NCBI GenBank assembly: GCA_963709505.1
Contig: CAVPXC010000010.1
Coordinates: 1-64,000, forward strand
Direction of reading: 5' to 3'
Source of the DNA: an uncultured Chloroflexia bacterium
Lineage (GTDB): Bacteria > Chloroflexota > Anaerolineae > JAAEKA01
DNA: 64,000 nucleotides
The notes beneath the pieces are model-generated. The model saw nothing but the letters and a program-made list of their open reading frames with translations. It had not been told where the DNA came from and searched no databases. Made by a program: the position numbers and the translations under genes. Below, piece by piece: positions 9,598 through 43,842 of this stretch (positions are counted from its first letter, which is position 1; each line of letters begins with the position of its first letter).

Positions 9598-10386
9598 TTG
9601 AGCCACTCGCACAAGAAGAGACGCCTGGAGGCAGCCGTCCAGGCTGTCCAGCAGAAGTGGGGCCAACAGGCCCTCCACAAGGGAACGCTCTCCACCGCCA
9701 CTTCGTCACCCCCTTGCCTGTCTACCGGCCTCCCGACGCTCGACCGCGTTCTGCGCATCGGCGGGCTGCCTCTTGGCCACATCTCAGAGCTGATCGGACA
9801 ACCGACCTCCGGCAAGCGCACGCTGGCCCTGCATATCCTGGCCCAGTCGCAGCATTGCTATCCATGTCTTTACCTTGACCTGGCCCAGACCTTCGACCCT
9901 GCTTACGCCGCTGCTTGTCACGTCGACCTCTCGCGGTTAGTGATTGCCGCGCCTGCCAGCCCGGCCGAGGCGCTCGATCTGGTCTGCGACCTGGCAAGCG
10001 GCGGCCATTTTGGCCTGATCGTCTTCGACTCGACTGCGGAACTGCGAGGTGGAGCATTGCCTGCCGCACCTGCCGCACCTGCCGCAGCCGCGCTGCGGCG
10101 GCTGCGGCAGGCCCTAAACGGCAAAGGCTGTGCGCTGCTCTTTTTGACCACCCCCCGGCCCGAGGCATCAGAGTTGTCCAACCCGTATCCGCCCGGTTTT
10201 GACCTGGCTCAGGCGGCCGCGCTGCGGCTGGAGGTGAGCCGGCAGCGCTGGCTGCGGCAGCGTGGCACGATGCGTGGCTACGAAGCGCGGGTCACAGTGA
10301 TGCGCAGCCGTTGGAGCGAGCCAGGTGGTCAAGCGACCGTGCGCATTATGCTCGATGGTTTGATTGACGACTCTCATGCCCGCTAG
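9598..10386 (+). CDS. imuA: ImuA (RecA-like SOS-mutagenesis protein); start uncertain
   Basis: GLPTLDRVLRIGGLPLGHISELIG ... GKRTLALHIL RecA-fold core typical of ImuA. A TTG at 9598 with an AGGA upstream is proposed as the start because 9544 overlaps the promoter. 23-nt overlap with imuB. Confidence 0.6.
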   Translation: MSHSHKKRRLEAAVQAVQQKWGQQALHKGTLSTATSSPPCLSTGLPTLDRVLRIGGLPLGHISELIGQPTSGKRTLALHILAQSQHCYPCLYLDLAQTFDPAYAAACHVDLSRLVIAAPASPAEALDLVCDLASGGHFGLIVFDSTAELRGGALPAAPAAPAAAALRRLRQALNGKGCALLFLTTPRPEASELSNPYPPGFDLAQAAALRLEVSRQRWLRQRGTMRGYEARVTVMRSRWSEPGGQATVRIMLDGLIDDSHAR

Positions 10387-11578
10387 AATCGCTTATCTCG
10401 TCATCCCCCACCTGCCTGTCGCCGTCGAGCGCCGTGAGCGGCCGCGGTTGGCAGGGCAGCCGGTAGTGATCGCCGCCGCGCACCACCTGGCCGGCGCTAC
10501 TCAGGTGTTGGACTGTTCGGCCGAGGCCCTGGCCGAAGGTGTGTATCCTGGCATGTCTATCGGCCAGGCCGAGCGCCTTTGCCCGGAGGGGGCGTTTCTC
10601 TCCCCGCGGCTCGATCTCTATCGCGCCGCGGCGGCCGGTCTGTTCGACCTGCTGCGCAGCCAGGCGCCGGCGGTGGAACAGGCGCAGCCGGGCGGGCTTT
10701 ATCTCGGGTTGGCCGGGCTGGAACAGCGGGACGAAGACGCGCTTATCTTGTGTTGCCAGCAGAGCGAGATGATCCAGCGCGAGCTGCGGCTGGCAACCAC
10801 CGCGGGCGTCGCCGTCAATAAGTTCACTGCTGAGGTGGCCTCGCTTTGCATCGGCCTCAACCGGGTGCTGGTTCTATCGGCTGGTACGGAGCGAGAGTTT
10901 CTGGGCGACTTCCCGGTCACCCTGCTCCCTGTGGAGGAGGAGACCCGGCGGCGCTTGCAGCTCTTCGGGCTGCGCCGGCTGGACCAGTTTGCTCGCCTGC
11001 CGCCGTCTGCCGTGCTGGCCCAGTTCGGTTGGGAGGGACAGCGCGCACACCGGCTGGCGCGCGGGCAGGATGACCGTCCGCTGATCGCGGGGTATAGCGA
11101 ACGCTTTGAGACGGGGCATCGTGAATTCGAGCCGCCGCTGGACGACCTGGAGCACCTGATCGCCGCAGCTAGCCGGCTGGTGACGGATTTGGCCGGCCGG
11201 CTAGCGCCAGCGCTGTTGCGCGGAGGCCAGTTCGACGTGCAAATGATCTGTGCCGACGGCACGCCGCTCGACGCCCATCGCATCCTGGCGGAACCTACCG
11301 CCGATGCGAGCCGGCTGGCAAGACTGGCCGAGGCCTTGTTACGTCCCCTAAGCTATCCCGATCGGGTGAGCGATCTCACGCTGACGCTCAGCGGGTTGAG
11401 CGTGCCTTCAGTGCATCAACTCAGCATCTGGCATAACTCACGGGAGGATGCAGCCGAAGCCCACCTGGCGCGCCTGGCCAAACGCTATGGCCCCCACTGC
11501 TTTCAACGAGCCGCCCTGGTCGACCCGGAGCACCGGCTCGCCGCGCGGCGCTTTATTCAGGTTGACTTTGCAAAATAG
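10364..11578 (+). CDS. imuB: ImuB (Y-family polymerase-like, DinB-fold) mutagenesis protein
   Basis: 404 aa with a Y-family polymerase fold (N-terminal AYLVIPHLPV ... AGVAVNKFTA), translationally coupled to imuA. No dnaE2 adjacent. Confidence 0.7.
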   Translation: MTTLMPARIAYLVIPHLPVAVERRERPRLAGQPVVIAAAHHLAGATQVLDCSAEALAEGVYPGMSIGQAERLCPEGAFLSPRLDLYRAAAAGLFDLLRSQAPAVEQAQPGGLYLGLAGLEQRDEDALILCCQQSEMIQRELRLATTAGVAVNKFTAEVASLCIGLNRVLVLSAGTEREFLGDFPVTLLPVEEETRRRLQLFGLRRLDQFARLPPSAVLAQFGWEGQRAHRLARGQDDRPLIAGYSERFETGHREFEPPLDDLEHLIAAASRLVTDLAGRLAPALLRGGQFDVQMICADGTPLDAHRILAEPTADASRLARLAEALLRPLSYPDRVSDLTLTLSGLSVPSVHQLSIWHNSREDAAEAHLARLAKRYGPHCFQRAALVDPEHRLAARRFIQVDFAK

Positions 11579-22322: not shown

Positions 22323-24357
22323 TCATGGCGCCATAGGTTCGGTAAGTGGCAGGTTTGTCAAGAGACAGTCGCCAGGCAGAGGCGCCTCCTCAGCCGTCAT
22401 TTCACCTGTCACCGGGTCAACTCCGGTCACCAATGTGCCTTGTGCCAGCCTGGCTTCGATTTCCTCCAGTGTGGCCTTGACATCGTCCGGGACCTGAGCC
22501 TCGGTATCGTGAAATGGGGCCAAGCCAATGCCGTTGTTTGCGACCTCATACATTGCCGTGCCATTCGTGAACGAGCCGCCTACCAGGCTTTTGATCGCGT
22601 CATACACGGCCTCGTCGGCGCGTTTCACCGCGCTGCTGAGCAGGTTCTTGGCGCCCTCTGTTCGACCCCGGTCGAAAGCCGTTACATATTGATCCAGATC
22701 TGCACCAATGGCCCAAACACCCTCTTGAGCTGCGCCTTGGATCGCGCTCACACTGGACGGGCCGCCGATGCCGGTCACCACGTCCGCGCCCCTTTCTGTT
22801 AGGCCTAGTGCGGATGCCCTGCCTTCCATTTCGCTAGCCATAGAATTGACATAAAAGAAAACGACGTTGCACTTTGGGCAAATACAGGTCACTCCAGTTT
22901 TGTAGCCAGAACGAAACGGTCTGAAAGCAGGATCTCCCTTGGTGGAGACGAGTCCGACGATCCTGCTCTTGACTCATCGAACCGGCCAGCACTCCGGCGA
23001 GAAAGCCCGCCTGATCCTCACGAAAGGCCAGTCCCTTCAGATTGGCTGGATAGGTCTCGTAGACGTGGTCAACGATGACGAACCGGGTGGCTGGGTGTTT
23101 CTCTGCAGCCGCCAGGGAGGCCTCGCTCATCCCGGGGCCCACAGCAATGACAAGATCAAACCCTTGGCCGGCAAACAGTTCGATGTTTCTTTCGTAGTCA
23201 CTTTGTCGGATCGTCTCGAGGATAGCCGTCTCGACGTTGAAATCGCCGGCGGCGCGCATCATGCCTTCATAGGCTGACTGGTTCAACGTGCCGTCTTCCA
23301 CGGTGCCACCATCGGTCACCAAGCCAATCCGATAGGGGCTGCTCACGCCTCTCCAGTTCTGTAGATCGATGTTCAATGTTAGAGCGGCCTGGCGCACCGG
23401 GTCGAACAGAGTGTCATCAGCCTCGGCAACGCCTTCCCACCCGTACATCGTAGAGAGCGCCTGCTTGCCCTTTGCGCGGGATGCCACGTCCTTCAGTGCC
23501 TTCTTGTAGGCGTCGGCGACCTCAGGCGGCACGTTAGGCCCGGCGACGATGGTGTCGTTAGGGATATCCTCTGTTTTGGCAAGAACCGCCGTCCTCTGGC
23601 TGATATCAGCTAGATCCTTCTCGAGATCGGCACGGATGTCGGCGGCGGTCGCAGCCGCATCCGCTTCACCGCGGTATACCGCAAGCGCTGCGGCAAAATG
23701 CGAGCCAGCGAAGTAACTTCTGCCCAGCTTGACACCGTTTTGCTCCAATAAGGCGACCGGGTAGAGATAGCCCGAGGCGCTGGCCGGATCGGTGAAGGCG
23801 AAGGTCTTGCCGTTCAGGTCGGCCACGGTTTCGATCCCCGAGTCAGCGCCTACAAGGATCTGGCCGTTGTAGAACTGGCTGCCAAAGCGGATCGACGTCA
23901 GCAATAGCTTGGCGTCCGGGCATTTGTCCTTGGCAATGACGTAGCTTAGGGTGGCCAGCCAGACGATATCCGCCTTGCCGGCGCACAAGGCTTCGATTGC
24001 AGTGGCGTAACTACTGGCGACCGAGGTGTCCAGATAGATGCCCTTTGCCTCCATCATCTCGTCCAGCTCACCTGCGCCGGCGAGGATTTTCTCGGTCTCG
24101 GCCGAGGGAACGAGGACCTGGATCAGAGGCATGGCCTCACTGCCTTTGACTGCGCTCGCGGTGGGCTGCTCAACCGGGGCGGCGCTAGGCTCAGTCGGGG
24201 TGACTGTAGGATGCTCGATAGAAAGCGTCGTCGGTTGTTCCTGCGGAACAGGCGGCGCCACAGCCGGCATTGCTTTGCTGCCGCAACCGGACACAACCAC
24301 GGCAACGACAATCAGGGCTGCCAGGAAAGAACAGAAACGCGGGTGCTTAGTCAGATT
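22323..24357 (-). CDS. fused PhnD-like (phosphonate/phosphite-type) and BMP-family substrate-binding lipoprotein, apparent frameshift
   Basis: N-terminal lipoprotein signal (start not resolved, near 24300-24360), a PhnD-like domain, then a BMP N-lobe (RIGLVTDGGTVEDG...). Frame change near 22850-22890 into the BMP C-lobe (22323-22892). Confidence 0.55.
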
Positions 24358-24469: not shown

Positions 24470-25732
24470 TTAGCGGCGCGCCCGGCGCCGGTGAGGCGGA
24501 TCAGGCGACTCGTCCTCGACCGGCGGGCGGGTGAGTGGATCTGACATGAGAAATTCGGTGCGGGCTTGGAGATCGTCGGGCGACGCGTCTTCGTCACGAG
24601 CGGCAGCGTCCGTCTTGATACCGTATAGCTTGGCCAAGTCGGATCGGACCTCTGTCCACGCATAGCGCTCAGCAGACAAGCGCGCGTTGTTGGCCAGGCT
24701 TTCCGCCAGGAACGGGCGACCTAACACACGCAGCGTGGCTTCAGCTAACGCCACGGCGTCCCCCTCCTGCACCAGGAGGGCATCTACGCCATCGTGCAAT
24801 AGCTCGGGCATAGACCCAACGTTGGTTCCTACTACCACGGTGCCGCTAGCAGCGGCCTCCAGCACACGCTGAGGCAGGTTATCCAGGCTGGCAGTATGCC
24901 AGAACACGCTGGCCTCGCGCAATGTGGCGAGCCAACGCTCGCCTGCGAGCTCTGGGCGGTAGGCGATCGACCTCGCAATGCCAAGCGTATGGGCCTGCGC
25001 CCCGATGGCCTGGGCGAGGGAGCCGCGGCCTATCATCATGAGCCGCGCCTGCGGCAGCGTTTGCAACACCTTGGACAGCGCGACGAGCGCCATGGAGGGA
25101 TTGGCCTCTGGCTCAAGTACGCTTGCCCACAACAACAAGGGCGGCCAGGCGCTGCGGGCCAGGAAGGGGGTGTGTTCGGGAACCAATATGTTGGGCAAGA
25201 CGGCCGGCTCCAGCCCCTCGCGCTGAAAGATTTCTTTGAGGTAGTCTGACGTCACGGCAAAGCCGTGCGCCCGTTTGACCAATGGCCGAACCAGCCGCCA
25301 GCGCCGCGCCATGAAGGTTCTCGCCACGCCGCTCGAGTAGGTAATCACCACCCGGCGGTGGAAGATCCTTCCCAAGAACAGCGCCAGGGTCACCGGCAGA
25401 TAGAACCCCCAGAAGCTAGCGGCCTGAACGTGGACGACGTCAACGCGCGGCAGGGTCGCAAGGAGGCGCCAGATGATTACGGGGATCTGCACCAGCGGTA
25501 GCAGGTGGAGGCCGATCACCGGCAGACGACGGACGGAGGGCACGTCCGTGTTGACCCTCTGCACCCAGGCGCCCTCCTGCTGCAAAAGTTGGCACAACTG
25601 TTCCGTCTGACGGCTCAGATCGCCAGTGCGAGGAGGGAACGGGCCTATGATGCAGACGGGAAATCCGCGAAAGCCTGCGCCAGCACCGTTCAGGGCAAAT
25701 CGGTCGGTCCTTGTCGTCTCCATGATTGGCAT
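24470..25732 (-). CDS. glycosyltransferase family 4 (GT-B)
   Basis: GT4 fold with the C-terminal EX7E-type region. Internal Met (MPIMETT) chosen as start because the upstream track extension has no homology. Confidence 0.65.
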   Translation of the reverse strand: MPIMETTRTDRFALNGAGAGFRGFPVCIIGPFPPRTGDLSRQTEQLCQLLQQEGAWVQRVNTDVPSVRRLPVIGLHLLPLVQIPVIIWRLLATLPRVDVVHVQAASFWGFYLPVTLALFLGRIFHRRVVITYSSGVARTFMARRWRLVRPLVKRAHGFAVTSDYLKEIFQREGLEPAVLPNILVPEHTPFLARSAWPPLLLWASVLEPEANPSMALVALSKVLQTLPQARLMMIGRGSLAQAIGAQAHTLGIARSIAYRPELAGERWLATLREASVFWHTASLDNLPQRVLEAAASGTVVVGTNVGSMPELLHDGVDALLVQEGDAVALAEATLRVLGRPFLAESLANNARLSAERYAWTEVRSDLAKLYGIKTDAAARDEDASPDDLQARTEFLMSDPLTRPPVEDESPDPPHRRRARR

Positions 25733-25913
25733 TGTACCACGGGCCGGTGGGAGTGCCAATCGTGACGTACAAATGGCCGTCGATGAAACGATGTCGATTG
25801 GCCTGCCTGCTGAGTAGGTAGACGCTGCGAGATTATGATATAATAGGGCCGTCATTCGATTGCAATCTGTCGTGACACAGAGGTTATCATCGCTGCTTCG
25901 ACAAGGGACGTCT

Positions 25914-26684
25914 ATGTCGACACTGATCACATTGTGCAACCAAAAAGGGGGCGTGGGCAAGACCACGACCGCAGTCAACCTGGGCGCGGCTCTGGCCGAG
26001 CAGGAACAACGCGTGCTGATGGTCGACCTGGATCCACAGGCGGCCCTCACAGCCTATTGGGGCTTGGAGGCGGAAAGCCCGCAGGTGACGATCTACCAGT
26101 TGCTCTTAAACGACTTGCAGCCGGCGACGGACGCTATTCGTCGCGTACGCCCACGGATCGACGTAATTCCGGCCGATATCGACCTGGCTGCGGCCGAGAT
26201 CGAGCTCTTCAGCGCACTGGGGCGAGAGCGGATCCTGAAGGAGCTGTTGACCAAAGTACAGGACGGCTATGACTACGTGCTGGTCGATTGTCCTCCCAAC
26301 CTGGGGCTGTTGACGGTTAACGCGCTCGTGGCCTGCCACGGCGTCATCATTCCCCTACAGTGCGAATACTTTGCCATGCGGGGCCTGAGCATGTTGTTGG
26401 ACACCTTGCACAAGGTCAAGCGGCGGCTCAACCCGCAATTGGACATCCTTGGTATCCTGCCGACTTTGTACAACAGCCGCACGCGCCACGGCAAGGAAGT
26501 CCTGGCGGAGGTGCAGCGCATGTTCGGCGAGCGCGTTTTCGAAACGAACATCCATAGCAGTATCCGTTTTGCCGAGTCGACCCTGGCCCGGCAACCGATT
26601 CTGGAGTATGCCCCGACGCATCCGGGCGCCCAAGCCTACCGCTCATTAGCGAAGGAGATCCTCGATGACACTAGACCAATCTAG
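25914..26684 (+). CDS. ParA/Soj-family P-loop ATPase (orphan, no parB)
   Basis: Deviant Walker A CNQKGGVGKTTT and full ParA fold. No ParB or parS-like partner in the window. Confidence 0.85.
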   Translation: MSTLITLCNQKGGVGKTTTAVNLGAALAEQEQRVLMVDLDPQAALTAYWGLEAESPQVTIYQLLLNDLQPATDAIRRVRPRIDVIPADIDLAAAEIELFSALGRERILKELLTKVQDGYDYVLVDCPPNLGLLTVNALVACHGVIIPLQCEYFAMRGLSMLLDTLHKVKRRLNPQLDILGILPTLYNSRTRHGKEVLAEVQRMFGERVFETNIHSSIRFAESTLARQPILEYAPTHPGAQAYRSLAKEILDDTRPI

Positions 26685-28194
26685 CACCCCACCAATCAAG
26701 CCGCCGGGACGGGGGCGAGACCTGTTCTTTGGCGATGAACCGGAAGTTATGGACGTCGATGCAGCCAGTACGGCGGCTGACGACGCTGTGCCAGCCCCTG
26801 AAGCGACGATGGAAAATGCCAATGCCGGCGGTGGCACGGCAGTCGTCGAGGAGGCGACAACTGCCGGCGAGACCACCACCGAGGTTACTGCGCTGATCGA
26901 AGAGCCGCAACCTTCGCCGGAGACTCCAGTGACGACGGTGGACGCACTTCCCGTCGTCGAGGCGGAAAGCCAGCCACTCAAGACCACGGCGCCTCCTCCT
27001 CCCCCGCCGCCGGCTCCGGTCGCCAAGCCGTCGAGCAACAACGGGGGATGTCTGCAAAGCTTGGCCGCCATGCTGCTGGGCGCATTGATCGGCGTGGGGT
27101 TGACGCTTGCGATTCTGTTTGCGCTCAACCAGGACCTTCGCTTTGCACCACGCACCACCGTGGAGGATGCGCAGCGCACGATCATAGCCCTGGGCACTGA
27201 CGCGGACGCGTTGAAGACCAACGTGACCGGTCTGCAAGGCGATCTGTCCACCCTCAACGATAGCGCAGGGCAGCTGCAAGACAGCGCCGCAGCGTTGCAG
27301 GATGAAGTGTCCAAGCAAGGCCAGGCGCAGTTGGCCCAGGGAGCAGCGCTGGATCAGTTGTCTGGCGCCGCGAGCGCGATGGGCGCGCAGATCACGGAGC
27401 TGCAAGCCGAGACTCAAGCATTGGCGGGACTTAAGGACCAAGTACAGGAAACGCAGGACCAGGTAGCCGGCCTGGAGACGACCGTTGGCTCAGTTCAAGA
27501 AGTCCTGGGAGTCGTTGCCAGCGAGGTGAGCACACTGACCGTGCGCGTGGACGATCTAGCGCTCAGTGCGCAGCGTTCCGATCGTTTCCTGCTGGGCATG
27601 CGTGACCTGATGGCCCTGGTATACACGGATGCGATCTCTCAGACCGCTGCGATCACCGGCACGCCACCGCTGACGGTGACGACGTTTGTTACAGCCACCG
27701 CTACGCCGACGGCCACCTTCGCCGTTACGCCGACCGCAGCGATCACGGCTACGCCTACAGTCACCGCCGCGGAGGCGATCACAGGCACTTCCGTGGTCAC
27801 GAGCACGGCTACCGTAACTAGCACGCCCACGGTGACGGCGACAGTACCCGTTACCGTTCCCACCGCACCTCCAACGCCCTCCGGCACGGGTAGCATCCAA
27901 GGTTCGGCCTATCTTGACGGCAACCGCGATGGGCGGCGAAATCCCGTGACGGAAGCGGGCCTGGCCAACGTGCGTCTGACGCTGTACGATCGGAACCGGG
28001 TAGAGTTGGCGCGGACTGTGACCGATGCGCGCGGAAACTTCAGCTTTGGCGACCTGCCGCCGGGGATTTACGTGGTAGTAGAGACTGATCCGGCCGGCTA
28101 CGTGTCCACCTCGCCCAACATCTTGACCGTGGTGCTCCGCAGCACCGCCACGGCGAGCGGTATAGACTTTGGGGACTACAAGGCGTCCCAGTAG
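26665..28194 (+). CDS. membrane-anchored coiled-coil protein with C-terminal Cna-B/SdrD-B-like domain; putative ParA partner
   Basis: Overlaps the parA stop by 20 nt. Acidic disordered N-terminus with a GRGRDLFFG motif, poly-Pro stretch, one TM helix, Q/A-rich coiled-coil, T/P-rich linker, C-terminal prealbumin-like B-type domain. Confidence 0.6.
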   Translation: MTLDQSSTPPIKPPGRGRDLFFGDEPEVMDVDAASTAADDAVPAPEATMENANAGGGTAVVEEATTAGETTTEVTALIEEPQPSPETPVTTVDALPVVEAESQPLKTTAPPPPPPPAPVAKPSSNNGGCLQSLAAMLLGALIGVGLTLAILFALNQDLRFAPRTTVEDAQRTIIALGTDADALKTNVTGLQGDLSTLNDSAGQLQDSAAALQDEVSKQGQAQLAQGAALDQLSGAASAMGAQITELQAETQALAGLKDQVQETQDQVAGLETTVGSVQEVLGVVASEVSTLTVRVDDLALSAQRSDRFLLGMRDLMALVYTDAISQTAAITGTPPLTVTTFVTATATPTATFAVTPTAAITATPTVTAAEAITGTSVVTSTATVTSTPTVTATVPVTVPTAPPTPSGTGSIQGSAYLDGNRDGRRNPVTEAGLANVRLTLYDRNRVELARTVTDARGNFSFGDLPPGIYVVVETDPAGYVSTSPNILTVVLRSTATASGIDFGDYKASQ

Positions 28195-28245: not shown

Positions 28246-28362
28246 TCAGAAGTAAGTGGCAAGTGGCAGGTGGCAGGTTGCAAGTTACAGGCTGCAAGTC
28301 TTCTGCAACCTGCCACTTGCCACTTGCCACTTGTCACCTGCCACCTGCCACCTGCCACTAAT
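28246..28362. repeat. hexamer-based palindromic repeat block (AGTGGC/AGGTGGC units, inverted halves)
   Basis: Read directly; related blocks at 39497-39580 and 50886-51000. Confidence 0.75.
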
Positions 28363-28418: not shown

Positions 28419-28447
28419 TTTGACAGGTAGATGCTTCTGTGTTACCA
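28419..28447 (+). promoter_or_regulatory. candidate promoter TTGACA-17-TACCAT for the aro leader transcript
   Basis: Consensus -35, 17-nt spacer, 4/6 -10, ~30 nt upstream of the leader RBS AAGGAAG. Confidence 0.4.
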
Positions 28448-28476
28448 TTCACACGCTGTCAAAGGAAGTGGTGGCA

Positions 28477-28653
28477 ATGAGCACCGACCCTATGAATCAT
28501 TACTCACTTTCAACACTTGCATCGGCCCCCGCCGAGAGCGTTCGCTTTGGCTTGCATCCGCGCCTGACTGAGTCCTGGCGCGGTTTCTATTTTTATTACT
28601 CTTTTGCGGGCCAACACGTCGCGCTCCACGCCTGGGCTGAGGTGGCACTTTGA
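28477..28653 (+). CDS. aromatic-amino-acid attenuator leader peptide (58 aa, contains W-R-G-F-Y-F-Y-Y-S-F)
   Basis: Strong RBS, aromatic codon cluster at ~28576-28605, stop at 28651. Followed by alternative antiterminator (28621-28631 pairs with 28685-28695) and terminator structures, and then the aro/phe operon. Confidence 0.6.
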   Translation: MSTDPMNHYSLSTLASAPAESVRFGLHPRLTESWRGFYFYYSFAGQHVALHAWAEVAL

Positions 28654-28683
28654 CGACCTAGACCACCCAACCGTGTCCGATAA

Positions 28684-28712
28684 AGCGTGGAGCGCATAGC
28701 CCACGCTTTTTT
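28684..28712 (+). terminator. attenuator terminator hairpin with a T6 run
   Basis: AGCGTGG-AGCGCATAG-CCACGCT followed by TTTTTTGTT; its 5' arm is complementary over 11 bp to 28621-28631. Confidence 0.65.
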
Positions 28713-28724
28713 GTTGCTGAAAGG

Positions 28725-28830
28725 TGATCGGTAATCAGTATTCGGTGATCGGTAATCAGGGTTGGCAGTTGCTGTTTACTACTCGTCAAATTCGAAATCA
28801 CCGATCACCGATCACCGATCACCGATCACA
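28725..28830. repeat. GATCACC/GGTAATCA tandem repeat block with inverted halves
   Basis: ggtgatcggtaatcag x2 ... atcaccgatcaccgatcaccgatcaccgatcac. Confidence 0.7.
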
Positions 28831-28845
28831 ATTCCCGGAGATTCT

Positions 28846-30163
28846 ATGCCCACTCGAGGCGTGCGCGGCGCGACGACTGTCGACGAGAATACGTCCGAAG
28901 CCATTCTCAAGGAGACCCGGCGTCTGTTGGCGCTGTTGATTCATTTCAATGGCATCCAACCAGAGGATGTTGCCAGCCTGATTTTTAGTACCACTCGCGA
29001 CCTGACGGCCGAGTATCCGGCCTTGGCTGCGCGCCAGCTGGGCTGGCTGGATACGGCCTTGCTCTGCGGCCACGAGATGGATGTGCCGGGTGGGCTGCCG
29101 CGTTGCATTCGCGTGCTGATCAATTGGAACACCGACACGAAGCCCCACGACATTGTCCACGTCTATCTGCGCGGCGCGCGCAACCTTCGGCCCGATAAGG
29201 CTGACCTGCCGCTCGCCCCGGTGGACGATTTGGAAGGCTGGATTCAGCAACAAGTCGATCATTGGCAGGACCAGAAGTCCGCCCGGAAGGAGAAGCGCAT
29301 GAAGATTGTCGCATTCCAAGGCGAACATGGCGCCTACTCGGAGCAAGCTTTGCGCCAACACTTCGGCCAGGAGGTCGGCACGCTGCCGTGTCATGCCTTC
29401 GAGGGCATCTTCGCCGCAATCGAGTTCTGGCGAGGCCGACTACGGCGTGCTGCCGGTTGAGAATTCCTCCGCCGGCTCCATCAACCGGGCGTTCGATTTG
29501 CTGTTAGACCATGATTTGCGCGTGTGGGGTGAGATTCTGTTGCGAGTCCGGCACAATTTGCTGGCGCTGCCGGGCACGACATTGGATCAGATCCACAGCG
29601 TCCGCTCCCACCCGCAGGCGTTGGCGCAGTGCGAGCGTTGGTTGAGCCAGCGCAACTTGAAGGCGGTGACTTGGTACGACACGGCCGGCAGCGCCAAGGA
29701 ACTGGCGGCCGCGCCGGAGCCCGGTGTGGCCGCCATCGCCAGCAGCCTGGCAGCCGAGACCTACGGCTTGGAGATTGTGGCCGCGGGCATCGAGGACTTG
29801 TCGTGGAACTACACCCGTTTCTTTGTCATCGGTCGCGGTGATGCACCGGTTAGCGCCAAGGCAAAGACCTCGCTGGTCTTTGCGGTTAGCCACGACCCTG
29901 GCTCGCTCTATCACTGTTTGGGCGAGTTCGCCACCCGCGGCATCAACCTGACAAAGATCGAAAGCCGGCCCCGTCGCAACCGGCCGTGGCACTATGTGTT
30001 CTACCTCGACTTTGCTGGTCACTGGCAGGATCCTACGTGCCAACAAGCGCTGGTTGGCCTGCTCGCCCGAGCCGCATTTGTCAAGCTACTGGGTTCCTAT
30101 CCGGCGGCGGAGATACCGGCGATGAACGGCGAAGGCGGGCAGAGCGAGTTGTTGCAAATATAG
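28846..30163 (+). CDS. pheA: AroH-type chorismate mutase fused to prephenate dehydratase (PDT+ACT), with an apparent +1 frameshift near 29425
   Basis: N-terminal [20 protein letters not shown] = AroH class; no stop before the PDT N-terminus ([17 protein letters not shown]). PDT continues in another frame ([14 protein letters not shown] ...) after a 1-nt insertion (gagTtctgg); C-terminal ACT domain. Confidence 0.7.
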
Positions 30164-30301: not shown

Positions 30302-31316
30302 ATGATCGTCGTCATGAAACAAGGCGCCACCGCCTCCGAGATCGGCGCTGTAATCGCCAAGGTCCAACAGCTGGGACTGACTGCCCATCCGATCTATGGC
30401 GAATCCAGCACGGTGATCGCCATCGTCGGCGAGGCGATTACCGTCCATCCGGATTCTTTCCAGGTGTTGCCAGGAGTTCGAGGTTGTCAACCGCATTGCC
30501 AAGCCGTTCAAGCTGGCCAGCCGAATCTCCAAGCCGGAAGACACGATCGTCAGTCTCAACGGCGTCTCGATTGGCGGCAAGAAGCTGGTGGTGATGGCCG
30601 GGCCGTGCAGTGTCGAGAGCCGCAGCCAGATCTTGGAAACGGCATGGGCCGTCAAGGAGGCCGGTGCGACGATCCTGCGCGGCGGCGCGTTCAAGCCGCG
30701 CACGTCGCCCTATTCCTTTCAGGGCATGGGGTTGAAGGGGCTGGAGCTTCTAGCCGAAGCGCGCCAAGAGACAGGGCTGTATATCGTCACCGAGGTGATG
30801 ACGCCCGATGCGGTGTCCATGGTCAGCCAGTACGCCGATATCCTGCAGATCGGGGCGCGTAACATGCAGAACTATGGCCTGCTCAACGCCGTCGGCCGGA
30901 CTCAGCGTCCCGTGTTGCTCAAACGCGGTATGATGAGCACAATCGAGGAGCTGCTGATGTCGGCCGAGTACATTATGTCCAACGGCAACTATCGGGTGAT
31001 CTTATGCGAGCGCGGTATCCGTACCTTTGAGCCGATGACCCGCAACACGTTTGACCTGAACGCGGTGCCGGTGCTCAAGCAGCTGAGCCATTTGCCCGTT
31101 GTCGCGGACCCGAGCCATGGCACTGGGCGCTACGACCTGGTGGCTCCGATGGCAAAGGCCGCTATCGCCTGCGGCGCGGATGGTCTTATCATCGAGGTGC
31201 ACCCGCATCCCGAGGACGCGGTCTCCGACGGCGCGCAAAGCCTCAAGCCGGAGAAATTCGCCAGGTTGATGCGAGATTTGAAACCATTGGCGGAGGCGGT
31301 GGGGCGAGAAGTTTAG
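30302..31316 (+). CDS. aroG: DAHP synthase (class I-beta, KDO8PS-like) with N-terminal ferredoxin-like/ACT regulatory domain, paralog 1, apparent +1 frameshift near 30478
   Basis: N-terminal [25 protein letters not shown] matches the regulatory domain of paralog 2. The catalytic domain (AGPCSVES ... [11 protein letters not shown]) resumes in-frame if one base (gttCgagg) is removed. Confidence 0.7.
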
Positions 31317-31458: not shown

Positions 31459-32472
31459 ATGATCATAGTCATGAAAGCAGGCGCAAGTGCCAGGGAAATC
31501 GGGCATGTCACCAGTCGTATCGACGAGATGGGCTTCCAGGTGCATTTGAGTAAAGGCACCGAGCGCACCATCATCGGCGTCATTGGCGATGAGCGGCCGT
31601 TGGACCCTGCGATGTTCGAGGTAATGGAGGGCGTCGAGAAGACGGTTTCTATTTTGCCGCCCTACAAGCTGGCTAGCCGCGAATTTCGGCGGGAGAATAC
31701 AGTGATTCCTGTTGGCGGCACGAGTGTCGGTGGCGAGCGGCTGGCCGTGATCGCCGGTCCGTGCAGCGTCGAGAGCCGCGGCCAATTGCTGGAAATCGCC
31801 CATGCCGTGAAAGAGGCCGGCGCTACGATGCTGCGCGGTGGCGCGTACAAGCCGCGCACATCGCCGTACGCGTTCCAAGGCATGGGGGTGCCAGGCCTGG
31901 AGCTGCTCGTCGAGGCGAGAGAAGCGACCGGTCTCCCCATCGTAACCGAAGTGATGGCGCCGGACAAGGTGGAGCTGGTGGCGGAATACGCCGACGTGCT
32001 GCAGATCGGCGCGCGGAACATGCAGAACTACCCGCTGCTGCAGGCCGCGGGCCGGGTTCAACGACCGGTGTTGCTCAAGCGCGGTATGATGAGCACGATC
32101 GAAGAGCTGCTCATGTCCGCCGAATACATCCTGGCCGCAGGCAACTACAACGTCATGTTGTGCGAGCGTGGCATCCGAACCTTCGAGACGTACACCCGCA
32201 ACACCACCGATATCAATGCCATCCCGGCGCTCAAGCATCTCAGCCATTTACCAGTGATCGGCGATCCCAGCCATGGCACCGGCAAATGGGCGCTGGTGGC
32301 GCCGGTCGCCAGGGCGCTGGTGGCAGCCGGCGTCGACGGCTTGATGATCGAGGTGCACCACGACCCCGAACACGCCCTGTCCGACGGCGCACAGAGCCTC
32401 AAGCCGGAGCGTTTTGCCGCGCTGATCCGGGAGATCCGGATGATTGCTGAGGCGGTGGGGCGGTCTGTGTAG
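31459..32472 (+). CDS. aroG: DAHP synthase (class I-beta) with N-terminal regulatory domain, paralog 2 (intact)
   Basis: 337 aa, continuous regulatory plus catalytic domains ([39 protein letters not shown]). Confidence 0.85.
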
Positions 32473-40468: not shown

Positions 40469-42001
40469 TCAGTGTGCGCGCAGCAGAGTGCGCAACTCCT
40501 GGCGGCCGAACGCAAAGGCGAAGAGGGCGTAGACCAGCCCGCCCACCACGATGCCGCCGCCGGCAAGCAGCCAGGGCGAGGCATCGCCGACGAGATTCAG
40601 ATACATCACCAACGCAGCCGCCATTGCCAGCGTGGCTCCCAGGCTGCGAACCAAAGTTCCTAGCAGCCGGCGGCCACCCAGGCCGCCAAGTCGAGGACGG
40701 ATCAGCCAGAGCAGAGTCAAGGTCTCGATCGTTGTCGCCAGGGTGTTGGCAAGAGCGAGGCCGCCATAGCTCAGCGGTCGTATGAGCAGCAAGCTGAACG
40801 CCAGGTTGAGCACCATCGCGCCGATACCGATGGCGACCGGCGTCTTCGTATCGTGCAACGCGTAGAAGCCGCGCGTAACTACCTCCAGCAGGCTGTGAGC
40901 CATCAGGCCGAAGGCGAAGAAGGCGAGCGCGTAGGCGGTCATCGCGGTGGATTGGGCGGTGAATTGGCCGCGCTGGAGCAAGAGCTGGATCAACGGCACG
41001 CGCAGGAGCAGCAGACCGGCGGCGGCCGGCAAAGTTAGCCAGAGCAGCGCACGCAGGGCGCCGTTGAGTGTTGCACGCAATTGGTCGATTTGCCCGCGGG
41101 CCGACAGCGCAGAAAGGGTGGGGAAAATGGCCGTGGCGATGCCCTGCGCCACGATGCCTTGCGGCAGAAGCATCATCAGCCATCCGTAGTTCAGCGCCGA
41201 CAGGCTGCCCGGGGCCAGCCGTGAGGCCAGATTGGCACTGATCAGGAAATTGATTTGCACGGCGGCCAGGCCGAGCACGCGCGGCCCCATCAGTCGTGTG
41301 ACCTCGCGCACGTCGGGATTTGACAAGCCCAAGGTCGGGAAGTACAGTGGCTTGCGGCGCAACAGGGCCGGTACTTGCACCAGCAGATGGGCCAACGCGC
41401 CCGTGACGACGCCGATAGCCAGCCCGCGCACGCCCAGAGCCGGCACCAGGAACCAGGCCGCCAGGATAATGGCCAGGTTGTAGAGCACCGGCGCCAACGC
41501 CGGCGAGAGGAAGTGCTGAAAGCTGTTGAGGACACCCATCACGATGCCGCTGAGGCCGAAGATGATCGGCGCGAACAGCATGATGCGCATCAATTGGGCG
41601 GTCAGCACCTGCTGTTCGGGCGCGAAACCGGGCGCGATCAGCGTCTTAACCAGCGGCAAAGCCAACAACGCGGCGACAATCGCCAACACGGTCGTGACGA
41701 TCAGCAGGAGGTTGCCGACGCTGCTGGCCAACCGCCAGGCGGCGAGGTGCCGCGGATCGTCCTCGCGGATGAGCGTGGCCGAGAAGGTGGGGATAAACGC
41801 CGAGCCGAGCGCACCACCCGCCACCAGATAGAAGATCATATCGGGCAGGCGGAAGGCGGCAAGGTAAGCATCAAGAGTGCCGCTGGTGCCGAACTGCGCG
41901 CCGATCACCATCTCGCGCACCAGGCCGAGCAGCCGGCTGACGGCGAAAAGTACGGAAACGAGCCCGGCCGCACGGGCGATTTGGCGGCGAGTAGCGGTCA
42001 T
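40469..42001 (-). CDS. murJ: lipid II flippase MurJ
   Basis: MATE-like 14-TM fold with conserved N-terminus VSRLLGLVREMVIGAQFGTSGTLDAY. Internal Met used; upstream extension not conserved. Confidence 0.8.
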   Translation of the reverse strand: MTATRRQIARAAGLVSVLFAVSRLLGLVREMVIGAQFGTSGTLDAYLAAFRLPDMIFYLVAGGALGSAFIPTFSATLIREDDPRHLAAWRLASSVGNLLLIVTTVLAIVAALLALPLVKTLIAPGFAPEQQVLTAQLMRIMLFAPIIFGLSGIVMGVLNSFQHFLSPALAPVLYNLAIILAAWFLVPALGVRGLAIGVVTGALAHLLVQVPALLRRKPLYFPTLGLSNPDVREVTRLMGPRVLGLAAVQINFLISANLASRLAPGSLSALNYGWLMMLLPQGIVAQGIATAIFPTLSALSARGQIDQLRATLNGALRALLWLTLPAAAGLLLLRVPLIQLLLQRGQFTAQSTAMTAYALAFFAFGLMAHSLLEVVTRGFYALHDTKTPVAIGIGAMVLNLAFSLLLIRPLSYGGLALANTLATTIETLTLLWLIRPRLGGLGGRRLLGTLVRSLGATLAMAAALVMYLNLVGDASPWLLAGGGIVVGGLVYALFAFAFGRQELRTLLRAH

Positions 42002-42058
42002 GAGATCAGGATTATAGCGTACGAGAACACTCGCGGGCAAGCTGCGAAGTGAACCGGG

Positions 42059-42139
42059 GTGTATTTCAAGTTGGGGGCAGACCCTTCGGGTTTTCCGCAA
42101 ACCCGAAGGGTCTGCCCCCAACTTGAAATACACCCCCTG
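42059..42139. repeat. ~80-bp perfect palindrome (37-bp stem) in the murJ / peptidase divergent intergenic region
   Basis: ggggtgtatttcaagttgggggcagacccttcgggttttccgcaaacccgaagggtctgcccccaacttgaaatacaccccc; the motif ACCCGAAGGGTCTGC also appears at 3889-3905 with its inverse at 3809-3823. Confidence 0.8.
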
Positions 42140-42189
42140 AACCGGTCGGGTCTGCCGGCGGTGATGGTTGATGAGATGGGATTCCACAC

Positions 42190-43842
42190 ATGTATTCTGA
42201 AGGAGCGTTTGCGATGAAAATAGTGGTGCGACTGCTGTTCGTTGTGTCAATCGCCATGTTGGCAGCCTGTCAGCCGCCGTCGGCGCAGCCGGCTGCGCCG
42301 ACGGTCACGCCGACAATCGCGCCGACGGTAGTACCGTCAACTGCTGTCGCGGAGACGCTGACTTTGCCCCTCTCCACGGCCACCGTGGCGACTCCCACCG
42401 AGTCGCCCACAACTGCTCCCACGGTCGAGGATGCTGTTCAGGGCTTGCCGGCTCCCACCCTGTTCGACGTGGCTTGGGAGGATCGGTCGCTATTTCGCAG
42501 TGGGTTGATCTCAGGCGAGCAAACGGTGCTCGACGCCCCATCTGGTGAAAGCGTCTATCACATCGATTTGCGTATCGCCGACGACCAGACCAGTGTTCAG
42601 GGCAAACAGGAAGTGCTTTATACCAACCGTGAGGCCGCGCCGCTTGCCGAGGTCGTTTTCCGATTGTTCCCCAACCTGACCGGTGGCTCGATGGCCGTCT
42701 CTGATTTGACGGTTAACGGACAACCAGCGGAAGCGCGCTATGAGCAGAGAGACAGCGCGATGATCGTGTCGCTGCCGGAGCCGCTGGCGCCCGGCCAGCA
42801 GGCCGTCTTCGCGATGGACTTCGACGTCACTGTGCCGACCGACGAGAGCAGCAACTACGGCACCTTCTCCTATCTGCGCGACGTGCTGGCCCTGGCCCAC
42901 TTCTACCCAATGATTGCGGTTTACGATTATCAAGGCTGGAACGACGAGATTGCCCCACAGGAGGGCGACATAATCTACAACGATGCGAGCCTCTATCTGG
43001 TGCGGGTGAACGCTCCGGAGAAGCTAGCGATCGTCAGCTCTGGGGTGACTTTAGACCGGCAAGAGCAGAACGGCCGGCAGGTGTTGACAGCCGCTGCAGG
43101 TCCGGCCCGCGATTTCTACCTTGCGGCCAGCGACGGGTATGAGGTTGCCAGCCAGAAGGTGGGCGAGACGACGATCCATAGTTACGCGCCGGCGACCCTG
43201 CGAAGCGGCGCCCGCAAGGTGCTCGAGACCGCCGGGAAGGCATTACAGGATTTCGAGGCTCGTTTTGGGCCTTATCCGTACACTGAATTGGATTTCGTCA
43301 GCACGGGCACCAATGCGCTGGGGGTGGAATATCCGGGGATCATCGCGATCACGGATAGAGCTTACAAAGGCGAATACGGACGCTTCTTGGAGTCGACGGT
43401 AGCACATGAGGTGGCCCATCAATGGTTCTACAACGAAGTAGGCAACGACCAGATCGACGAGCCGTGGCTGGACGAAGCGCTTGCTCAATATGCGACCCTG
43501 CTCTACTTCCAGGACGAGTACGGCCTGGCCGGTGCGGACGGCTATCGCCAGGCGCTAGAGGACCGGTGGAACCGGGCCGACCGGGTAGAAATCCCAATCG
43601 GCATGCCTGTCGCCAAATACACTGACGGGAGCTACGGCGCCATCGTCTACGGTCGCGGGCCGCTGTTCTTCGAGGCACTGGAGGAGAAGATGGGCAAACA
43701 GTCCTTCGAAGCGTTCCTGCGCGACTACGTCGAAGCTAACCGATGGGGCATCGCCACGACCGAGGGTTTGCGCGCGCTGGCCGAGCAGCACTGCGGCTGT
43801 GATTTGGCTTCGTTGTTTAGCAAATGGGTGTATGCCGAGTAG
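42190..43842 (+). CDS. secreted/lipoprotein gluzincin metallopeptidase (M1-like, HEXXH-X18-E)
   Basis: Signal/lipobox (LAACQ), HEVAHQWFYNEVGNDQIDEPWLDEALAQY zinc-binding motif. Confidence 0.6.
   Translation: MYSEGAFAMKIVVRLLFVVSIAMLAACQPPSAQPAAPTVTPTIAPTVVPSTAVAETLTLPLSTATVATPTESPTTAPTVEDAVQGLPAPTLFDVAWEDRSLFRSGLISGEQTVLDAPSGESVYHIDLRIADDQTSVQGKQEVLYTNREAAPLAEVVFRLFPNLTGGSMAVSDLTVNGQPAEARYEQRDSAMIVSLPEPLAPGQQAVFAMDFDVTVPTDESSNYGTFSYLRDVLALAHFYPMIAVYDYQGWNDEIAPQEGDIIYNDASLYLVRVNAPEKLAIVSSGVTLDRQEQNGRQVLTAAAGPARDFYLAASDGYEVASQKVGETTIHSYAPATLRSGARKVLETAGKALQDFEARFGPYPYTELDFVSTGTNALGVEYPGIIAITDRAYKGEYGRFLESTVAHEVAHQWFYNEVGNDQIDEPWLDEALAQYATLLYFQDEYGLAGADGYRQALEDRWNRADRVEIPIGMPVAKYTDGSYGAIVYGRGPLFFEALEEKMGKQSFEAFLRDYVEANRWGIATTEGLRALAEQHCGCDLASLFSKWVYAE

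Follow-up and report, generated by a model that had tools for sequence, protein, structure and literature searches.

ParA/MinD ATPases are the main known means by which bacteria place large objects without cytoskeletal motors. They generally act through N-terminal peptides of their partners, and the cargos catalogued in a 2024 review are chromosomes, plasmids, the divisome, carboxysomes, flagella, chemoreceptor arrays, and the conjugation machinery (PMC11407121). The known cargos are few, and the rules that prevent cross-talk among several ParAs of one cell are still open (PMC11407121). Here, we analyzed an orphan parA gene and the partner gene that overlaps it within 64,000 nucleotides (nt) of an uncultured Chloroflexia bacterium (assembly GCA_963709505.1, contig CAVPXC010000010.1, positions 1 to 64,000), a stretch that we call the window. 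On balance, we consider it probable that the two genes form a ParA system through which an envelope protein is coupled to the nucleoid, with neither ParB nor a separate adaptor.

The reference for such systems is chromosomal ParABS (Soj/Spo0J). In Myxococcus xanthus, ParB's motif for binding ParA spans residues 11-19 (L-G-R-G-L-x-x-L-I), where L11, L15, L18, and I19 are required for binding and R13 mainly for ATPase activation, and ParB acts efficiently only with two juxtaposed peptides (PMC12462528). Other ParA systems carry protein cargos and rely on an adjacent partner with N-terminal activation: McdA/McdB for carboxysomes, PpfA/TlpT and ParC/ParP for chemoreceptor arrays, and PomZ/PomX/PomY (PMC11407121). 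The nearest characterized ATPases to the one described here are the actinobacterial orphan ParAs, namely Corynebacterium glutamicum PldP, Mycobacterium tuberculosis Rv1708, and Mycobacterium smegmatis MSMEG_3743 (with the Mycobacterium ParA-like protein of PDB 4pfs/5ihp, which may be MSMEG_3743). They co-exist with canonical parAB, and ParB fails to stimulate the DNA-binding PldP, whose activator is reported as unknown (bioRxiv 10.1101/2025.07.02.662783).

The initial annotation had described this locus as a parA without parB, translationally coupled to a membrane-anchored protein. Its open reading frames, the KGGVGKTT motif, the 20-nt overlap, and the 509-amino acid (aa) partner were recovered at exactly the same coordinates:

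25914..26684, + strand: parA, an orphan ParA/Soj-type ATPase of 256 aa (open reading frame list, Pfam, and PDB matches).
26665..28194, + strand: partner gene, coding for a 509-aa bitopic envelope protein, the putative adaptor and cargo in one.
26665..26684, + strand: overlap of parA and the partner gene, 20 nt, translational coupling (open reading frame coordinates).
26651..26657, + strand: ribosome-binding site GAAGGAG of the partner gene, within the 3′ end of parA and 7 nt before the ATG at 26665.

By its sequence, the ATPase is a bona fide Soj-type ParA, and DNA binding is predicted. It presents the deviant Walker A motif KGGVGKTT (residues 11-18, with the signature lysine K11), DLDPQ (38-42) as motif 2, and the Walker B motif VLVDCPP (122-128), and it matched AAA_31 (1.3e-60) and CbiA (6e-27) in Pfam. 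The best PDB match was the Mycobacterium ParA-like protein 4pfs (1e-61), and further matches were M. xanthus ParA 8ray (3.4e-59), Thermus Soj 1wcv (2.8e-56), and Helicobacter pylori Soj 6iub (1.3e-51); the identity to M. xanthus ParA is about 43%. The Walker motifs, the DNA-binding arginines, and this similarity to structurally characterized Soj/ParA proteins place it within the ParA/Soj subfamily. Both DNA-binding arginines, R189 and R218, are present; Hester and Lutkenhaus reportedly described their role in Bacillus subtilis Soj in 2007. R218 aligns with R238 of M. xanthus ParA, in which the change R238E abolishes DNA binding (PMC12462528). The C-terminus (...LAKEILDDTRPI) has no amphipathic membrane-targeting helix, and thus the expected matrix is the nucleoid and not the membrane.

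ParABS systems have an adjacent cognate ParB, and here the gene downstream of parA gave no ParB-type Pfam match. The annotated lack of parB held: tblastn with 29 ParB proteins found none in the 64 kb of the window or in related loci from metagenome-assembled genomes (MAGs) that add up to about 68 kb, and there is no second parA in the window. Compared with ParABS, this ParA shares the Walker motifs, the DNA-binding arginines, and most of the residues that form the peptide pocket and receive the ParB arginine. The order of the coupled genes (parA, then partner) is also alike, and the partner has a peptide in register with the ParB motif. However, the partner lacks the ParB fold, the CTPase or helix-turn-helix domain, and parS, and it is a bitopic envelope protein instead.

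The two genes overlap in 13 or more distinct loci, with ParA identities ranging from 100% to 59% and overlaps of 17-26 nt (the window, L001-L003, L007, L009-L011, L091, and L093-L103). Wherever the contig extends upstream, parA overlaps the partner homologue by 17-23 nt (L001-L003, L093/94, L095, L007, L009-L011, and L091). A search from the ParA side gave a clade of about 70 clusters at 68-100% identity, and sampling it at 73% (L096-98) and 68% (L099-101) again retrieved an overlapping partner of the same family. Co-conservation, which had been put forward as a way to check the proposal, was therefore seen in every lineage as ParA identity fell from 100% to 68%. The proposal thus withstood the two outcomes that had been named as refuting it, since parB did not turn up near this parA or its relatives and the partner is co-conserved. 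Word-indexed searches found about 10 partner homologues; this number reflects their sensitivity limit, as seen from the ParA search and an exhaustive HMMER search. All the full-length partner homologues came from metagenomes or from Chloroflexota MAGs labelled Anaerolineales, Caldilineales, or Chloroflexia, and the true taxonomic spread is probably narrower than these labels, because the MAG loci have near-identical flanking genes.

The genes around the pair vary. Wzy_C lies upstream in many loci, and GT4 (family 4 glycosyltransferase), Alg14, and Glyco_tran_28_C are divergent in others; downstream, we found chorismate mutase/prephenate dehydratase, phosphoglucomutase, or a large permease. Since the flanking genes differ among loci, it is the pair that is conserved and not the neighborhood. 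In one locus (L092), the last 74 codons of parA are left as a relic, 72% identical and at the expected position. The partner gene is frameshift-broken in three others (L009, L010, and L091), whose assemblies contain frameshifts. Mobile or addiction elements lie by the module in some cases: an IS66 transposase between Wzy_C and parA (L096 1566-3002) and a HicAB toxin-antitoxin pair upstream of parA (L095 1426-1880).

The partner had been described as an acidic tail, a polyproline stretch, one transmembrane (TM) helix, a coiled coil, a Thr/Pro linker, and a Cna-B/SdrD-B fold. Composition, AlphaFold2, Pfam, and Foldseek verified all of these parts, the AlphaFold2 model being built on an eight-sequence family alignment (pLDDT is its per-residue confidence score):

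26665..27045, + strand: acidic disordered tail, predicted to be cytoplasmic, residues 1-127, net charge -16 (composition; pLDDT < 40).
26704..26739, + strand: predicted ParB-like ParA-binding peptide PGRGRDLFFGDE, residues 14-25 (conserved island; ParB alignment).
26992-27012, + strand: poly-Pro PPPPPPP, residues 110-116 (sequence).
27046..27132, + strand: G-C-L and the single TM helix, residues 128-156 (AlphaFold2 helix; hydropathy maximum of 2.53 at residue 136).
27151..27639, + strand: long-helix/coiled-coil region, predicted to be extracytoplasmic, residues 163-325 (AlphaFold2 helices 163-224 and 229-325, pLDDT 70-79).
27565-27600, + strand: family hallmark SAQRSDRFLLGM, residues 301-312, in the end part of the coiled-coil region.
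27640..27888, + strand: Thr/Pro/Ala-rich disordered linker, residues 326-408 (pLDDT < 40).
27889..28185, + strand: C-terminal SdrD-B/CnaB-type beta-sandwich, residues 409-507 (pLDDT 80-90).

The coiled-coil region gave weak matches to coiled-coil families. The linker holds 30 Thr and 11 Pro per 80 residues and may be a candidate O-glycosylation region, judging from the neighboring glycosyltransferase and Wzy_C genes. In Pfam, residues 415-495 matched SdrD_B (5.8e-12) and SpaA (1.6e-9), and the best PDB matches of the beta-sandwich in Foldseek were SdrD B1-B2 (5.8e-8), UafA, GBS52, and CnaB2 (1.3e-6). The sandwich carries a Ca-loop-like motif, D-x-N-x-D-G-x-x-N-x-x-x-E (residues 418-430). G128, C129, and L130 are invariant in the family alignments, and Gly-Cys-Leu is found in nearly all members of the SdrD_B type. 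At what would be the cytoplasmic edge of the TM helix, it could serve lipidation or an inter-subunit disulfide.

The partner starts with a hydrophilic N-terminus (MTLDQSSTPPIKPPGRG...), without a signal peptide, and ends in ...GDYKASQ, without LPxTG. The lack of a signal peptide, the extracellular type of the C-terminal domain, and the paralogues headed by a helix-hairpin-helix (HhH) domain that are presented below support the geometry put forward initially, a cytoplasmic tail and an extracytoplasmic structural domain; thus, we infer an N-in/C-out topology. The extracytoplasmic part, which comprises a rod of helices about 160 residues long, a Thr/Pro spacer of 80, and the CnaB-type domain, looks structural or wall-contacting.

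HubP, TipN, PopZ, and DivIVA are fixed anchors for other ParAs, and HubP and TipN recruit ParA-type ATPases. With HubP (Vibrio), TipN (Caulobacter), and the bitopic division landmark MapZ/LocZ, our partner protein would have in common the single-pass or other membrane anchoring, a long acidic or disordered cytoplasmic region, and a wall-facing domain. However, no sequence or domain homology between them is known, and HubP, TipN, and MapZ are not known to be operon-coupled to a dedicated ParA. SdrD/Cna B-domain proteins, that is, MSCRAMMs (microbial surface components recognizing adhesive matrix molecules) and Gram-positive pilins, share the fold of the C-terminal residues (about 100) and a similar Ca-loop motif. 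They differ in that our partner protein has no ligand-binding A domain and is anchored by an N-proximal TM helix. An MSCRAMM or sortase-anchored protein was rejected as a reading: the B-type domain is present, but neither a signal peptide nor LPXTG.

Family alignments displayed a sole conserved island in the 127-residue tail, G-R-G-x-D-L-F-F-G-D/E at residues 15-25, with the core G-[RK]-G-x-D-L-F-F at residues 15-22. A set of 18 distinct partner peptides was compared with 45 ParB peptides, likewise distinct and taken from the retrieved Soj-ParB loci; all were anchored on G-[RK]-G. Common to both sets are the preceding Lys, G0, R/K1, G2, an aliphatic position 3, D4, a hydrophobic residue at both 6 and 7, and an acid at 9. 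They include the positions through which, by mutagenesis, ParB binds and activates M. xanthus ParA (L15, L18, I19, and R13; PMC12462528). Position 3 is Val, Ala, Ile, or Leu in most partners, positions 6-7 are Phe-Phe in partners, and position 5 differs, with Ala in ParB and Leu in partners. The pattern G[RK]G.[DE][LIVM][LIVMF]F was scanned over six frames of all 104 fetched loci and the window (1.45 million residues). It gave 18 matches, all N-terminal in a gene overlapping an orphan parA, and zero matches away from the partner N-terminus.

The same peptide was also found on a different protein. In L102/L103, a 59%-identical ParA overlaps by 26 nt an unrelated 555-aa polytopic protein, and the sole region that BLAST finds in common with the window partner is the peptide GGKGADILFGTEGE. 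That this unrelated partner shares the peptide alone is the strongest argument for the peptide, rather than any other part of the partner, as the element that speaks to ParA. A 104-aa protein (L032 810-1124; L035 1015-1329) likewise overlaps an orphan parA, starts MAKRTRVKGRGAAIFLGEDK, and has a related peptide, KGRGAAIFLGED.

Altogether, these data considerably strengthen the suggestion made initially that GRGRDLFFG is a ParB-like peptide that would stimulate ParA. It falls in the ParB register, it is the only island of the tail, it has zero background, it is absent in a homologue that lacks parA (P0006), and it recurs on an unrelated scaffold. At the sequence level, the locus thus shows the marks of a protein-cargo ParA system, an adjacent co-conserved partner and an N-terminal basic and hydrophobic peptide. 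It differs from the known ones in that the peptide sits directly on a single-pass membrane protein, with its bulk predicted outside the cytoplasm, and the partner has no sequence relationship to McdB, PomX, ParP, or TlpT.

Other small observations concern these additional partners. The 555-aa protein (L102 4752-6419) and a homologue beside another orphan ParA (L015 3340-end, starting MAKKRASLKGKGHSILVGKEE) make up a second, unrelated family of membrane-anchored ParA partners. Their N-terminal G-K-G-x-D/S-I-L-F/V-G comes with a Pro-rich acidic tail about 270 residues long, a helical stretch, and three or more TM helices at the C-terminus. In L102, a TMEM260_N-type GT-C glycosyltransferase gene is situated upstream. 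The 104-aa protein had no Pfam match; by eye, it shows a segment like a ribbon-helix-helix (ATFYLPIDLIDNLE) and resembles a small adaptor of the ParG/omega type.

On the ParA side, the interface was mapped by alignment to 8ray, the M. xanthus ParA(21-274, D60A) crystal form, recognized by VDMAPQ. Five of the six hydrophobic pocket positions are kept (M. xanthus to window: V116=I96, L150=L130, L152=L132, L155=V135, and L192=L172), and the sixth, L187, is K167 in the window ParA. The site receiving the arginine is kept as well (Y81=Y61, D110=D90, and E117=E97). Position 176 of M. xanthus ParA (Mx-176) is adjacent to the peptide and presents a chemical-shift perturbation upon binding of the ParB peptide. 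It is R156 in the window ParA.

Counted irrespective of kinship, 57 of 83 distinct ParAs have Glu at Mx-176, and the remaining 26 have Arg or Lys. The Glu-176 ParAs were followed downstream by ParB in 54 cases, by another non-ParB gene in one, and by the contig end in two, with no GRGxDLFF partner. For the Arg/Lys ParAs, the downstream gene was a GRGxDLFF partner in 11 cases and another non-ParB gene in 14, one reached the contig end, and none was followed by ParB. ParB was scored by a relaxed ParB-box pattern, and Glu-176 is an empirical signature derived here and not a published definition. The Mycobacterium ParA-like 4pfs also presents Arg at this position. Compared with ParABS, the locus thus differs at the interface on both sides: Glu to Arg at Mx-176 and L187 to Lys in ParA, and in the peptide the loss of the first Leu, the Phe-Phe pair, and the acidic residues that follow. 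The charge reversal at Mx-176 is as expected for a specificity switch that shields the orphan ParA from the ParB of the cell, and D19, D24, and E25, the acids flanking the peptide, could plausibly be the counterparts of the basic residues gained by ParA.

These counts bear on one alternative, an ordinary chromosome-partition ParA with its parB elsewhere, whose adjacency to a surface-protein gene has no functional meaning. All the Soj hallmarks are indeed present, source records annotate the relatives as 'chromosome partitioning protein', and Rv1708 is reported to bind ParB (PMC10482377). We find this explanation hardly credible, considering that 54 of the 57 Glu-176 ParAs are ParB-linked while the window ParA and all 26 orphans have Arg or Lys, that the overlap with the partner is kept across changing contexts, that the partner bears a ParB-like peptide, and that ParB did not stimulate the orphan PldP.

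Partners P0004/P0005 present a clean 7-residue deletion that removes GKGVDLF when compared to P0168 (AGKGVDLFFADAEE), which is 47-50% identical. The ParA of this lineage (L003/L093) is alone in the clade in having both D110N and I116F, two predicted interface positions. Peptide deletion and ParA changes are a hint of co-evolution that is suggestive only, as they represent a single evolutionary event.

Besides, some of the Arg-176 outgroup orphan ParAs have other companions. A second ParA-like gene, 33-36% identical, lies about 0.8 kb upstream in L012-L017 (e.g., L014 3180-4061 and 3932-4771), giving tandem ParA-family ATPases. Downstream of an Arg-176 orphan ParA, L017, L018, and L033 harbor a 113-aa Trypco1 (PF19493) protein.

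An exhaustive HMMER search with residues 1-321 of the partner (without SdrD_B) against 1.84 billion cluster representatives retrieved 99 matches at E ≤ 1e-3, 13 of them at ≤ 1e-10. It added four peptide-headed relatives (P0161, P0168, P0169, and P0209) and five proteins with the full architecture, including SdrD_B, but no peptide (P0162, P0163, P0165, P0166, and P0177). When each member was scanned against Pfam, a ComEA-type HhH head (HHH_3) was present in 53 of 86 full-length matches and SdrD_B in 12 of 86. The window protein and the HhH-headed relatives have in common the Pro-rich segment, TM helix, coiled coil, and Thr/Pro tail, as well as two motifs: LNGxLxFA after the TM helix (N-G/Q-x-L-x-F/W-A) and the hallmark SAxRSDxFLxG. 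Profile comparison by hhalign confirmed the homologous scaffold, giving a probability of 98.8% (E 1e-16) for the family against P0236 and 98.1% (E 7e-14) against P0036. These two HhH-TM-coiled-coil proteins are uncharacterized, with P0036 annotated as 'ComEA-like helix-hairpin-helix protein'; they differ from the window protein in that the HHH_3 head replaces the ParA peptide, and most proteins of this type lack SdrD_B.

The HhH heads have no signal peptide and lie 150-250 residues before the TM helix, and for these reasons they should be cytoplasmic. As a caveat, the HhH domain of ComEA itself functions outside the cytoplasm. Provided that the heads do lie in the cytoplasm, a link to DNA would be habitual for the scaffold family, either directly through HhH or, in the branch of the window, indirectly via a nucleoid-binding ParA. 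The HhH paralogues thus support both the N-in/C-out geometry and a ParA-nucleoid bridge as the point of the system. They also offer an evolutionary clue, since they would wire the same scaffold straight to DNA.

In the mechanism that we propose from sequences and structure predictions, ParA-ATP dimers would coat the nucleoid. The partner would probably oligomerize through its TM helix and extracytoplasmic coiled coil; this would supply two juxtaposed peptides, as ParB needs two for efficient action. The disordered acidic tail of about 110 residues, with the rigid poly-Pro at the membrane, would present the ParB-type peptide from its tip, and the dimer-interface pocket of ParA, used for ParB in canonical ParAs, would capture it. 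The Arg of the peptide would then trigger ATP hydrolysis, and ParA would be released from DNA. The output could be a diffusion ratchet that spaces and segregates the envelope protein, singly or in clusters, over the length of the cell or filament, in the way that ParB-parS, McdB-carboxysomes, or chemoreceptor arrays are moved; equally, it could be an ATP-regulated tether between nucleoid and envelope.

A pure form of the second option is a static or ATP-gated tether or landmark, in which ParA (and the chromosome) is captured so as to organize or segregate DNA in a filamentous cell; ParA would then be localized and would not be a motor. The commonest scaffold relatives (53 of 86) carry a head that would bind DNA directly, which speaks for DNA contact as the task of the family; ParA retains both DNA-binding arginines, and ParA-binding landmarks of the membrane or cell pole are established. 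Nevertheless, we regard a pure tether as rather unlikely: the peptide keeps the Arg that ParB needs for activation and not for binding (PMC12462528), which implies turnover. Such a tether would share ParA coating, peptide presentation, and hydrolysis with the system we favor, and only the output would differ.

Some observations weigh against the coupling of the envelope protein by ParA. Position -1 of the peptide is Leu in 44 of 45 ParBs and Pro, Ala, or Ser in partners, and position 3 is Arg in the window partner. In the P0004/P0005 lineage, parA has stayed coupled although the core of the peptide is gone. P0006, the most divergent homologue, has no parA upstream and no peptide; together with the several full-scaffold homologues without the peptide, it implies that the envelope protein does not depend on ParA to function. 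The charges on either side of the TM helix favor N-in weakly. Finally, the counts at Mx-176 ignore kinship, and the orphan ParAs may be a single clade.

The genomic context raises another alternative. The divergent GT4 that had been annotated next to parA is present:

24470..25738, - strand: divergent GT4 glycosyltransferase (Pfam Glycos_transf_1, 6.4e-19).

Among the relatives, Wzy_C is directly upstream of parA in L007, L009, L010, L091, L092, and L096-L098; GT4/Alg14/Glyco_tran_28_C are divergent in the window, L091, and L099-L101, and the last two entries have a fuller glycan cluster. Of that cluster, the Wzy_C, 509-aa, and Alg14 genes are absent from the window, whose GT4 is a remnant of the larger envelope-glycan cluster (Alg14, Glyco_tran_28_C, GT4, a 509-536-aa gene, and Wzy_C). 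No glycan gene context was found around the outgroup orphan ParAs. The glycan neighborhood is recurrent, not universal, and it is context rather than mechanism.

One could read this context as a polysaccharide chain-length or export module, with a Wzz-like co-polymerase and a P-loop ATPase working with Wzy_C and glycosyltransferases, like CapA/CapB or Wzc. The recurrent Wzy_C upstream of parA and the divergent GT4/Alg14/Glyco_tran_28_C would fit, and bacterial tyrosine kinases (BY-kinases) also match AAA_31/CbiA and rely for activation on a juxtamembrane peptide in a bitopic or bi-TM partner. This is very unlikely to be the case, as the ATPase is of the Soj type, with K11 and about 43% identity to M. 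xanthus ParA, and neither Wzy_C in the window nor any glycan context in the outgroup orphan ParAs accompanies it. As specific candidates, BY-kinase and Wzz were rejected. TIGR01007 scored 31 bits versus a cutoff of 108 and TIGR03018 35 versus 230, the last 30 residues of ParA hold two Tyr and no cluster, and the partner had no Wzz/GNVR Pfam match.

The resemblance to the actinobacterial orphan ParAs suggests yet another function, a septum regulator of the PldP/Rv1708 type that would be MinD-like, with the partner as a membrane-bound topological specifier placing septa in a filament. In its favor, the best structure match is the Mycobacterium orphan ParA-like 4pfs (1e-61), with Arg at Mx-176, and PldP and Rv1708/MSMEG_3743 give division phenotypes and septal enrichment (bioRxiv 10.1101/2025.07.02.662783; PMC10482377). 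We deem it improbable: no FtsZ, MinC, or divisome gene is nearby, the bulk of the partner (SdrD-B domain and Thr/Pro linker) appears to be extracytoplasmic, and the identity to the PldP/Rv1708 group is about 50%. The genes of this group adjoin scpA/scpB and not a membrane partner.

Returning to a ParA system that couples the envelope protein to the nucleoid, it would represent a candidate new class of cargo, a single-pass envelope protein that bears the activating peptide, so that adaptor and cargo are the same molecule. The catalogue of cargos in the 2024 review has no bitopic extracytoplasmic structural protein (PMC11407121). We found no earlier description of this cargo, of the adaptor-free wiring, of the position-176 signature, or of the swap of an HhH head for a peptide; the principle is familiar. 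The interface also offers a candidate specificity code, with Glu at Mx-176 in ParB-linked ParAs and Arg/Lys in orphans, and a peptide that is correspondingly altered and flanked by acids. This code could guide the search for partners of orphan ParAs such as PldP. Moreover, with two genes and a 12-residue peptide, so minimal a system would be appealing to reconstitute or to use in positioning membrane proteins synthetically.

A wider scenario can be drawn, which we offer as a conjecture that is more doubtful than the coupling itself. Filamentous Chloroflexota would have a family of envelope-spanning fibrous proteins that couples the envelope to the nucleoid, mostly by HhH heads, and one branch would have swapped HhH for a ParB-mimic peptide and a dedicated charge-reversed ParA. 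A passive tether would thereby have become an ATP-driven self-organizing system that spaces an extracytoplasmic structure along the filament, or that anchors or segregates chromosomes without ParB/parS. The same peptide-pocket code would then identify the activators of orphan ParAs such as PldP and Rv1708.

Two further features flank the operon:

25836..25844, + strand: candidate extended -10 promoter element TGATATAAT of the parA-partner operon (read by eye, tentative).
28255..28359, + strand: long heptamer-built palindrome (RNA fold of -73.5 kcal/mol, z = -8.1).

DNA conservation between the window and the related contig L091 starts at 25833. A scan for the sigma-70 consensus called no parA promoter, and no -35 element was matched near the extended -10. 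The palindrome, directly 3′ of the partner gene, is imperfect, about 105 nt long, and built of GGCA(A/G)GT heptamers; none of 200 shuffles folded equally well. It has no U-tract and is probably an operon-end hairpin. The same repeat is present at three places in L091, and the palindrome may be a dispersed element, similar to repetitive extragenic palindromes (REP-like), that doubles as the operon-end hairpin. Further downstream, before the chorismate-mutase gene, about 250 nt separate a promoter-like site (28420-28448) from a hairpin and T-run (~28680-28712). The stretch 28420-28712 is a possible leader or attenuator; scans of the window for Rfam families and tRNAs gave no match, including none for this stretch.

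In the window, the pair is surrounded by ordinary chromosomal genes: those upstream code for a nucleoside-type ABC transporter and those downstream for the aromatic amino-acid pathway. Three of these genes look frameshifted and are either pseudogenes or assembly indels, whereas parA and the partner gene are intact. They are a Phosphonate-bd/Bmp binding protein gene (22323-24300, - strand), a chorismate mutase-prephenate dehydratase fusion (28762-30163, + strand) that is one 483-aa gene in L096-L098, and a DAHP (3-deoxy-D-arabino-heptulosonate 7-phosphate) synthase gene (30302-31316, + strand) adjoining an intact paralogue (31459-32472). Elsewhere, the window harbors Eco57I/MmeI-type N6-methylase genes and a SWIM zinc-finger protein (61730-63927, - strand; 56327-58084, - strand), together with MurJ (40469-42250), a flotillin (7862-9340), and a Y-family polymerase (10364-11578).

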